Source of the DNA: Shigella phage ESh31
Strand: one strand, 5' to 3'
Sequence record: ON528741
DNA length: 64,000 nucleotides
Shown here piece after piece: positions 63,496 through 64,000 of this stretch. Positions within the stretch are counted from its first letter, which is position 1. Every line of letters starts with the position of its first letter. The position numbers and the translations under genes are program-made. The notes beneath the pieces are model-generated. The model was not told the origin of the DNA and searched no databases. It saw only the letters and a program-made list of their open reading frames with translations.

Positions 63496-64000
63496 TTATA
63501 CTCTTGAACCATATATAGCACCAACATTCTGCCATGTTGGTGCTGATCCTGCTACAGCAGCACCAGGATTTGTCGGAGGTGTTGAATAACCAGCACCTGG
63601 ATTAGCATATTGTCCTGGCTGACCAACTTCACCACCGCCACCTGCATAATACCCTGTACCAGTATTACCGCCAGCACCCGGAGACGTCAAACTAGCATTA
63701 CCACCAGGCCATCGAGCACCATTATTTCCGCCTAAGCCGAATGGACGACCGCCACCGCCGCCACAAACATATTTTCCCGCCCAGTTGTTGGCTTGTGAAT
63801 AACCACCGCCGCCACCGCCGCCACCTGCATAATACCCTGTACCAGTATTACCGCCAGCACCCGGAGACGTCAAACTAGCATTACCACCAGGCCATCGAGC
63901 ACCATTATTTCCGCCTAAGCCGAATGGACGACCGCCACCGCCGCCACAAACATATTTTCCCGCCCAGTTGTTGGCTTGTGAATAACCACCGCCGCCACCG
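63496..64000 (-). CDS. 38: receptor-recognising adhesin gp38 (T2/T6 type, glycine-rich motifs); N-terminus beyond window
   Basis: Minus-strand frame open to the window edge; poly-Gly islands between variable segments; lies immediately upstream of t. Confidence 0.6.
63635..64000 (-). repeat. perfect 183 bp tandem direct repeat inside gene 38
   Basis: Segment from about 63641 recurs identically from about 63824 (period 183 bp = 61 codons); second copy cut by the window end. Confidence 0.8.

Follow-up and report, generated by a model that had tools for sequence, protein, structure and literature searches.

[quoted passage not shown] In T4, in-frame tandem duplications in gene 37, which Tetart is said to have described in 1996, reportedly expand the host range. 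The prototype of the gp38 fold is S16 gp38 (PDB 6F45), a polyglycine-II (PGII) sandwich in which ten PGII helices are arranged in three layers and which displays five hypervariable distal loops; helix 3 is a Gly8 tract and helices 3-10 are formed from one long beta-helix excursion. For PP01 gp38, a protein of 259 residues whose gene is located between gene 37 and t, the loops have been assigned to residues W119-I124 (loop A), Q161-V170 (loop B), N184-W189 (loop C), N204-Y209 (loop D) and N225-S231 (loop E) (PMC12892980). Loop E is the principal OmpC(O157)-binding loop of PP01; it determines specificity and enters the cleft that separates loops 5 and 7 of OmpC(O157). Its positioning depends on Tyr209 of loop D and Tyr159 of loop B, and loop B possibly contacts LPS (PMC12892980). 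Crossovers in gene 38 are known to fall within its glycine-rich motifs (Trojet 2011, PMC3157838), and the tail-fibre genes of PP01 rearrange in two or three passages (PMC6027323). In T6, amber truncations of gp38 at GRM3 or GRM5 resulted in no adsorption and no plaques, and no deletion of a single glycine motif or hypervariable segment was recovered (PMC3157838).

In the present study, a gene 38 carrying a tandem repeat was analysed in a stretch of DNA of 64 kb, the whole of which is referred to as the window. The reading preferred here, at a probability of roughly 0.6, is a very recent, in-frame, microhomology-mediated tandem duplication in gene 38 of a PP01-like Tequatrovirus.

Results

Gene 38 and its genomic context

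On the minus strand, an open reading frame extends from position 63999 to a TAA stop codon at 63496..63498 and comprises 167 codons within the window (63499..64000, minus strand); its 5′ part lies beyond the window edge. The translation ends with AIYGSRV*, as in PP01 gp38, and contains the conserved C-terminal end APxWxxVGxIYGxRV. The open frame, the Pfam profile GP38 (PF05268; 107.8 bits, Pfam gathering score 25, E=9.4e-31; two stretches of the 167-aa fragment matched), the identity to PP01 and the match to the PP01 gp38 crystal structure (PDB 9V85, E=2.7e-60) identify it as the 3′ part of gene 38 for a long-tail-fibre tip adhesin of the T2/PP01 type. S16 gp38 (PDB 6F45) was matched both by sequence (E=3.5e-7) and by Foldseek (E=8e-6), the Foldseek matches to 9V85 and 6F45 confirming the family only. 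The N-terminal gp37-attachment domain Gp38_N (PF21721) is found in all relatives, and the window shows the 3′ part of gene 38 alone. Holin t (62809..63465, minus strand; Phage_holin_T, PF11031, E=5e-117), the annotated neighbour of gene 38 in PP01, is located immediately downstream after a 30-nt spacer in a PP01-like arrangement and outside the duplication; gene 37 would be situated past the window edge. The proposal of the initial annotation, a minus-strand gp38 of the T2/T6 type upstream of holin t, was therefore borne out by profile, neighbour and identity to PP01. Among the neighbours checked, the gene 52 topoisomerase subunit, MotA and holin t have lengths as in related genomes.

The closest deposited gene is PP01 gene 38 (LC348379) with 99.7% nucleotide identity. 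The visible protein is identical to PP01 gp38 except for an extra 61 residues, which represent a second G155-G215, and loops B-E, the glycine motifs and the C-terminal end are common to both. Ala228 and Tyr230 of loop E, Tyr159 (loop B) and Tyr209 (loop D) are all present, the two last-named residues twice. The full residue set of a PP01-type gp38 with predicted OmpC(O157) specificity is present in the window. Canonical gp38 architecture comprises five glycine-rich motifs and four hypervariable segments in approximately 250-310 aa; the window gene departs from it in that loops B, C and D and the intervening motifs are doubled. Profile, adjacency to holin t and C-terminal motif place the protein in the gp38 family, and due to the departure from the canonical architecture it has to be regarded as a structural variant and not as a typical member.

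Beyond the fibre-tip module, the genome is T4-like and only about 96% identical to any deposited phage. The genome is mosaic: window 61800-63829, which comprises the asiA-t-gene 38 tip module, shows an identity of 99.6-99.7% to PP01, and over the final 20 kb of the window taken together the identity to any deposited phage is at most about 96% (best JY01 and Sf24).

A closer relative was found in the ENA contig ERZ27230241:k141_37096 (167,100 nt; hereafter L006), which shows two synonymous differences (60649 and 62547) to window 59809-63825, i.e. over about 4 kb, probably belongs to the same phage lineage and would be the obvious reference for the remainder of the window. Its gp38 of 259 aa is single-copy, and outside the repeat there is no nucleotide difference from the visible gene 38 of the window. 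Since L006 is near-identical and yet single-copy, the duplication, if real, is very recent. A very recent expansion had been suggested in the initial annotation, and as far as recency is concerned this stands for a real duplication (two differences in about 4,000 bases, single copy); an origin in phage DNA, as opposed to assembly or finishing, is the more probable alternative.

Extent of the tandem repeat

Tandem Repeats Finder (TRF) reported a tandem repeat at 63630-64000 with a period of 183, 2.0 copies, 99% matches, 0 indels and a score of 735, and a repeat search returned 63630-63812 and 63813-63995 as a head-to-tail copy pair. In a direct comparison of each base with the base 183 positions further on, identity was found at 183/183 positions (63635 to 63817), the run being bounded by the window end alone. 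The sole mismatch, A at 63634 versus G at 63817, concerns the first base outside the duplicated block and is therefore a boundary mark and not a divergence of the copies, between which there are zero differences anywhere in the block. A perfect tandem unit of 183 bp (61 codons) over at least 177 bp had been noted before; the exact figure is 183 bp plus a shared boundary, and the second copy does run to the window edge, with period-183 identity up to position 64000. No other tandem array in the whole 64-kb window has a score of 80 or more. The G+C content of the 183-nt unit is 56% compared to 34.7% for the window.

The repeat is located in frame in the 3′ part of the minus-strand gene 38, and its unit corresponds to 61 codons. 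Phased to the codons, the repeat analysis gives a C-proximal (promoter-distal) copy at 63631..63813 (minus strand), which is equivalent to PP01 G155-G215, and an N-proximal (promoter-proximal) copy at 63814..63996 (minus strand), which matches the former throughout the block. With the loop limits of PMC12892980, the C-proximal copy contains loop B at 63766-63795, loop C at 63709-63726 and loop D at 63649-63666, and the N-proximal copy contains loop B′ at 63949-63978, loop C′ at 63892-63909 and loop D′ at 63832-63849, all on the minus strand. Together with these loops, about six polyglycine-II helices are held by the unit G155-G215 and are present twice. Loop E (NPGAGYS, PP01 N225-S231; coordinates from the sequence, function according to PMC12892980) is present once at 63583..63603 (minus strand), and loop A would fall beyond the window edge.

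Since the repeat extends up to position 64000, two copies are a minimum. A real duplication might accordingly continue beyond the window as a larger array or one of variable size (at least three units, or mixed 1, 2, 3... copies), with an adhesin length that varies in the manner of a contingency locus. The period-183 identity does reach the last base, the next 8 nt would be alike for another unit or for native upstream sequence, and exact 183-nt direct repeats are substrates for more unequal recombination according to general knowledge of T4 genetics. However, there is no third copy within the window, a three-copy protein of 381 aa is absent from the protein collection and copy-number variation at gene 38 was not found in related phages, which makes such an array improbable.

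The junction and its parental sites

An eight-glycine tract forms the novel junction (63802..63825, minus strand) between ...TGYYA in the upstream copy and YSQANNW... in the downstream copy. The coding-strand sequence there is TAT GCA GGT GGC GGC GGT GGC GGC GGT GGT TAT, and the corresponding parental sites in PP01 read ATT GCC GGT GGC GGC GGT GGC GGC GGT GGT TAT (upstream) and TAT GCA GGT GGC GGT GGT GAA (downstream). A comparison of the PP01 parental sites with the window junction points to an octamer as the putative crossover site. This microhomology, CCGCCACC at 63635..63642 on the minus strand (coding strand GGTGGCGG), marks the start of the Gly4 tract (PP01 G212-G215), and the same octamer also begins the Gly8 tract (PP01 G151-G158). 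The parental sites have the form ATT GCC GGTGGCGG C... and TAT GCA GGTGGCGG T..., and the junction has the form TAT GCA GGTGGCGG C.... As judged from these letters, the junction is that of exactly one crossover within the 8-nt GGTGGCGG, with the frame kept and a native-looking Gly8 tract rebuilt. At the protein level, the layout ...NNGGAIA-G8...YYA-G4 of PP01 is replaced in the window by at least five glycines followed by YSQ...YYA-G8-YSQ...YYA-G4-EVGQ.... The sequence TATTATGCAGGTGGCGGCGGTGGCGGCGGTGGTTATTCA is diagnostic for the junction, and the native boundaries are represented by ATTGCCGGTGGCGGCGG and TATGCAGGTGGCGGTGGTGAA.

Such a structure would be generated by unequal recombination or replication slippage between two GGTGGCGG stretches, one where the Gly8 tract begins (polyglycine-II helix 3, 'GRM1') and one in the Gly4 tract that follows loop D ('GRM4'). 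The outcome is that the 183 nt between the stretches are doubled and linked via the rebuilt Gly8 tract. The alternative of an assembly or finishing artefact implies a single real copy and either an untrimmed 183-nt contig-end overlap, for instance from circularising or rotating a permuted genome, or a low-coverage mis-join in GGC-rich sequence. That the window stops 5 nt beyond the second copy, within the poly-Gly tract, would fit a record terminating there. On the other hand, an untrimmed overlap has arbitrary ends, whereas an in-frame crossover in an 8-nt microhomology that restores the native Gly8 codon series was observed here; at usual k, 8-9 shared nt are by far not enough for a de Bruijn graph loop, and no further duplication is present elsewhere in the 64-kb window.

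Occurrence in related sequences and assemblies

All 51 phage records that match a junction-spanning query align to it as two overlapping pieces (51/51), i.e. they are single-copy, and each of the 40 best records for a 701-nt query matches over about 530 nt. A single-copy gene 38 is also found in Logan contigs from SRR36526114 and SRR36526116. The exact junction occurs once in the window and was absent from the viral, genome and metagenome contig collections, as was, from the viral, genome and metagenome collections, a degenerate junction pattern with 4-12 Gly codons for which the window was the positive control. No occurrence of the duplication was found in E. coli complete genomes and plasmids by megablast. 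A look-up of the exact holin, gene 52 topoisomerase subunit, Y16D and MotA proteins of the window yielded many T-even contigs, all with a gp38 of 258-269 aa or of the T4 type with 183 aa, these four proteins being too conserved to single out the phage of the window.

At the protein level, a search of 5.8 billion clusters yielded 175 gp38 clusters, and the 120 listed have lengths of 194-276 aa, plus one fusion of 303 aa. Full-length gp38 relatives, searched with HMMER in 1.84 billion representatives, comprise 249-309 aa with one matched stretch each, and the longest of them have the canonical motif order and longer loops. For the reconstructed two-copy (320 aa) and three-copy (381 aa) gp38, no exact match was obtained among 15 billion sequences, in which both single-copy controls were found. 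A gp38 duplication is also undescribed in the literature searched, a search to which the older work of the Henning laboratory on Ox2 host-range mutants did not belong.

A separate observation concerns three proteins of 713-727 aa (P0165, P0169 and P0177), in which residues ~345-540 match the beta-helix and the glycine-rich part of gp38. Possibly, these are fibre proteins in which a fused, gp38-like domain for receptor binding takes the place of a separate adhesin.

The searches bear on the notion that the repeat is long-standing or common in gp38, reflecting the periodicity of its glycine-rich motifs and not a new event. Reiterated glycine-rich motifs do exist in gp38; however, those of natural gene 38 are split by divergent segments, the closest relatives are single-copy, the two copies in the window are identical at every position, and no tandem repeat in gene 38 was detected by TRF across 39+12 related loci. 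Ordinary periodicity is refuted by the single-copy relatives, the cluster lengths, the family range of 249-309 aa and TRF on the related loci, and its chance is close to nil. In the initial annotation, natural gp38 genes were described as conserved glycine motifs with divergent segments between them; the exact duplication is absent from the 51 records, the clusters and the 39+12 loci alike, and the alignment to other gp38 sequences that it had recommended as a check revealed homologues that do not carry the duplication.

The same uniqueness to the window, with no second independent observation in any collection searched, is what an assembly artefact would also produce. Furthermore, four independent T-even assemblies break inside gp38 at the GRM2 poly-Gly tract, namely ESh16 (ON528726), MLF4 (MH992121), a Shigella contig of 166,594 nt (P0134) and the Logan contig L070, and the frequency of these breaks is far above the random expectation for a 167-kb genome. 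Tandem repeats beside gene 38 in contig L041 indicate that artefact-like duplications occur at the gene 38/t locus. As the poly-Gly tracts of gene 38 break several assemblies, errors there are plausible, but the other assemblies break at GRM2, a tract distinct from the duplication boundaries. A real event is further favoured by the documented crossovers in the glycine motifs of gene 38, by the rapid rearrangement of PP01 tail-fibre genes and by a perfect in-frame duplication in gene 37 of PP418987.1, which is described below. Taken with the precise, in-frame junction, an artefact is considered unlikely, if still a serious contender.

The breaks at GRM2 lie within a few codons of the tract (between KYVC and GGGGG in PP01-type genes), and Illumina sequence-specific errors or coverage loss are suspected behind them, GRM2 being GGC-rich. 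The idea that the record ends of ESh16 and MLF4 hide the same duplication was rejected, since the joined ends give a normal single-copy gene. In L041 (IMGVR_UViG_2974741249_000001), three adjacent tandem repeats with periods of 62, 103 and 132 nt and 98-100% identity occupy positions 2628-3445 just downstream of gene 38, and the holin t ORF is truncated to 127 aa; this region looks mis-assembled.

Predicted structure of the enlarged adhesin

If there are exactly two copies, the adhesin comprises 320 residues versus 259, with single loops A and E. Since each unit contributes three distal loops and about six helices, an even number, we infer that an in-register extension of the lattice is topologically possible, in which the Gly8 tract of the junction would act as a tight proximal hairpin. 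The C-proximal copy, contiguous with helices 8-10 and loop E, would probably restore the native OmpC-binding face. The N-proximal copy would add further helices and loops to the fibre tip as an extra lobe and alter adsorption or host range; a broader tip, additional contacts to LPS or porins, or a partial blocking of the binding site could result. A changed host recognition, as predicted in the initial annotation, would be plausible from the loop map of PP01 if the duplication is not an assembly error.

An AlphaFold2 prediction of the 167-aa fragment with 41 homologues had a mean pLDDT of 62, with confident values for the C-proximal copy and the tail and values mostly <50 for the N-proximal copy (fragment residues ~1-56). 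Due to the fact that MAFFT forced the N-proximal copy onto the N-terminal domain of the homologues, this result is silent on the folding of the extra copy. Since the T6 deletions were not recovered and the length of the family is tightly constrained, a 61-residue insertion in the polyglycine sandwich might not fold. Conversely, if the duplication belongs to the consensus of a phage, this phage must still be able to adsorb, and the 320-aa protein would be at least tolerated.

Discussion

Recombination in T-even phages is very active, and a direct repeat of 183 nt should be lost readily. The repeat is therefore expected to be unstable, yet it is present in the consensus, which would imply selection or a very recent bottleneck, and the expected instability predicts a population with mixed copy numbers. 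Confidence in the duplication is limited by the single, edge-truncated and read-unsupported occurrence. Beyond the duplication itself, we propose only tentatively that the phage is viable with an enlarged PGII sandwich (~16 helices and eight distal loops versus an otherwise constant 10 and 5), that the motifs serve as sites of unequal recombination, and that the modules of gp38 possibly vary in copy number, with a changed or wider choice of receptors.

If the duplication is real and functional, the protein would represent the first case of an expanded polyglycine-II adhesin, of use as a lead for engineering. With three loops and six helices doubled, a functional protein would show that the rare PGII fold can be extended and that Gly-coding motifs permit a change in module number besides module swaps, and it would provide a natural template for adhesins with extra receptor loops. 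If the repeat is an artefact, gene 38 is flagged as a spot to check in T-even assemblies.

Among deposited T-even genomes, a comparable structure was found in gene 37 of PP418987.1 (L029 14937-15243), which contains a perfect in-frame tandem duplication of 153 nt with 2.0 copies and 100% identity. Its 51-aa unit YSLPITLG...MDWGTI is doubled at aa 393-494, and gp37 comprises 1045 aa compared to 994-995 aa in relatives. Both cases are exact in-frame two-copy tandems at the long-tail-fibre locus of a deposited T-even genome; that of PP418987.1 differs in that it concerns gene 37, has a microhomology of 1 nt and lies outside the adhesin receptor loops.

With the T4 gene 37 duplications, the repeat in the window shares the in-frame tandem arrangement, the location in a receptor-recognition segment of the long-tail-fibre tip, the borders in short conserved motifs and the T-even background, and as an exact in-frame duplication bordered by a short motif (183 nt, 61 codons, 8-nt GGTGGCGG) it is of the T4 gp37 type. 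The T4 case, however, concerns the needle domain of the trimeric gp37 and reportedly arose under laboratory selection, with a phenotype that was demonstrated, whereas the present case concerns the polyglycine-II sandwich of the monomeric gp38 and is known from sequence alone.

The shuffling of gp38 (Tetart 1998; Trojet et al. 2011, PMC3157838) has in common with the event in the window that crossover takes place in short Gly-coding motifs without extended homology. Known shuffling is an equal exchange between phages (motif n with motif n), by which hypervariable segments are swapped and the five motifs and four segments are kept. The event in the window, by contrast, would be unequal (GRM1 tract with GRM4 tract) and intragenic, and changes the number of modules. 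In the same fold family, S16 gp38 and all other members have one set of helices 3-8, whereas the protein encoded in the window would have ~16 helices and 8 distal loops.
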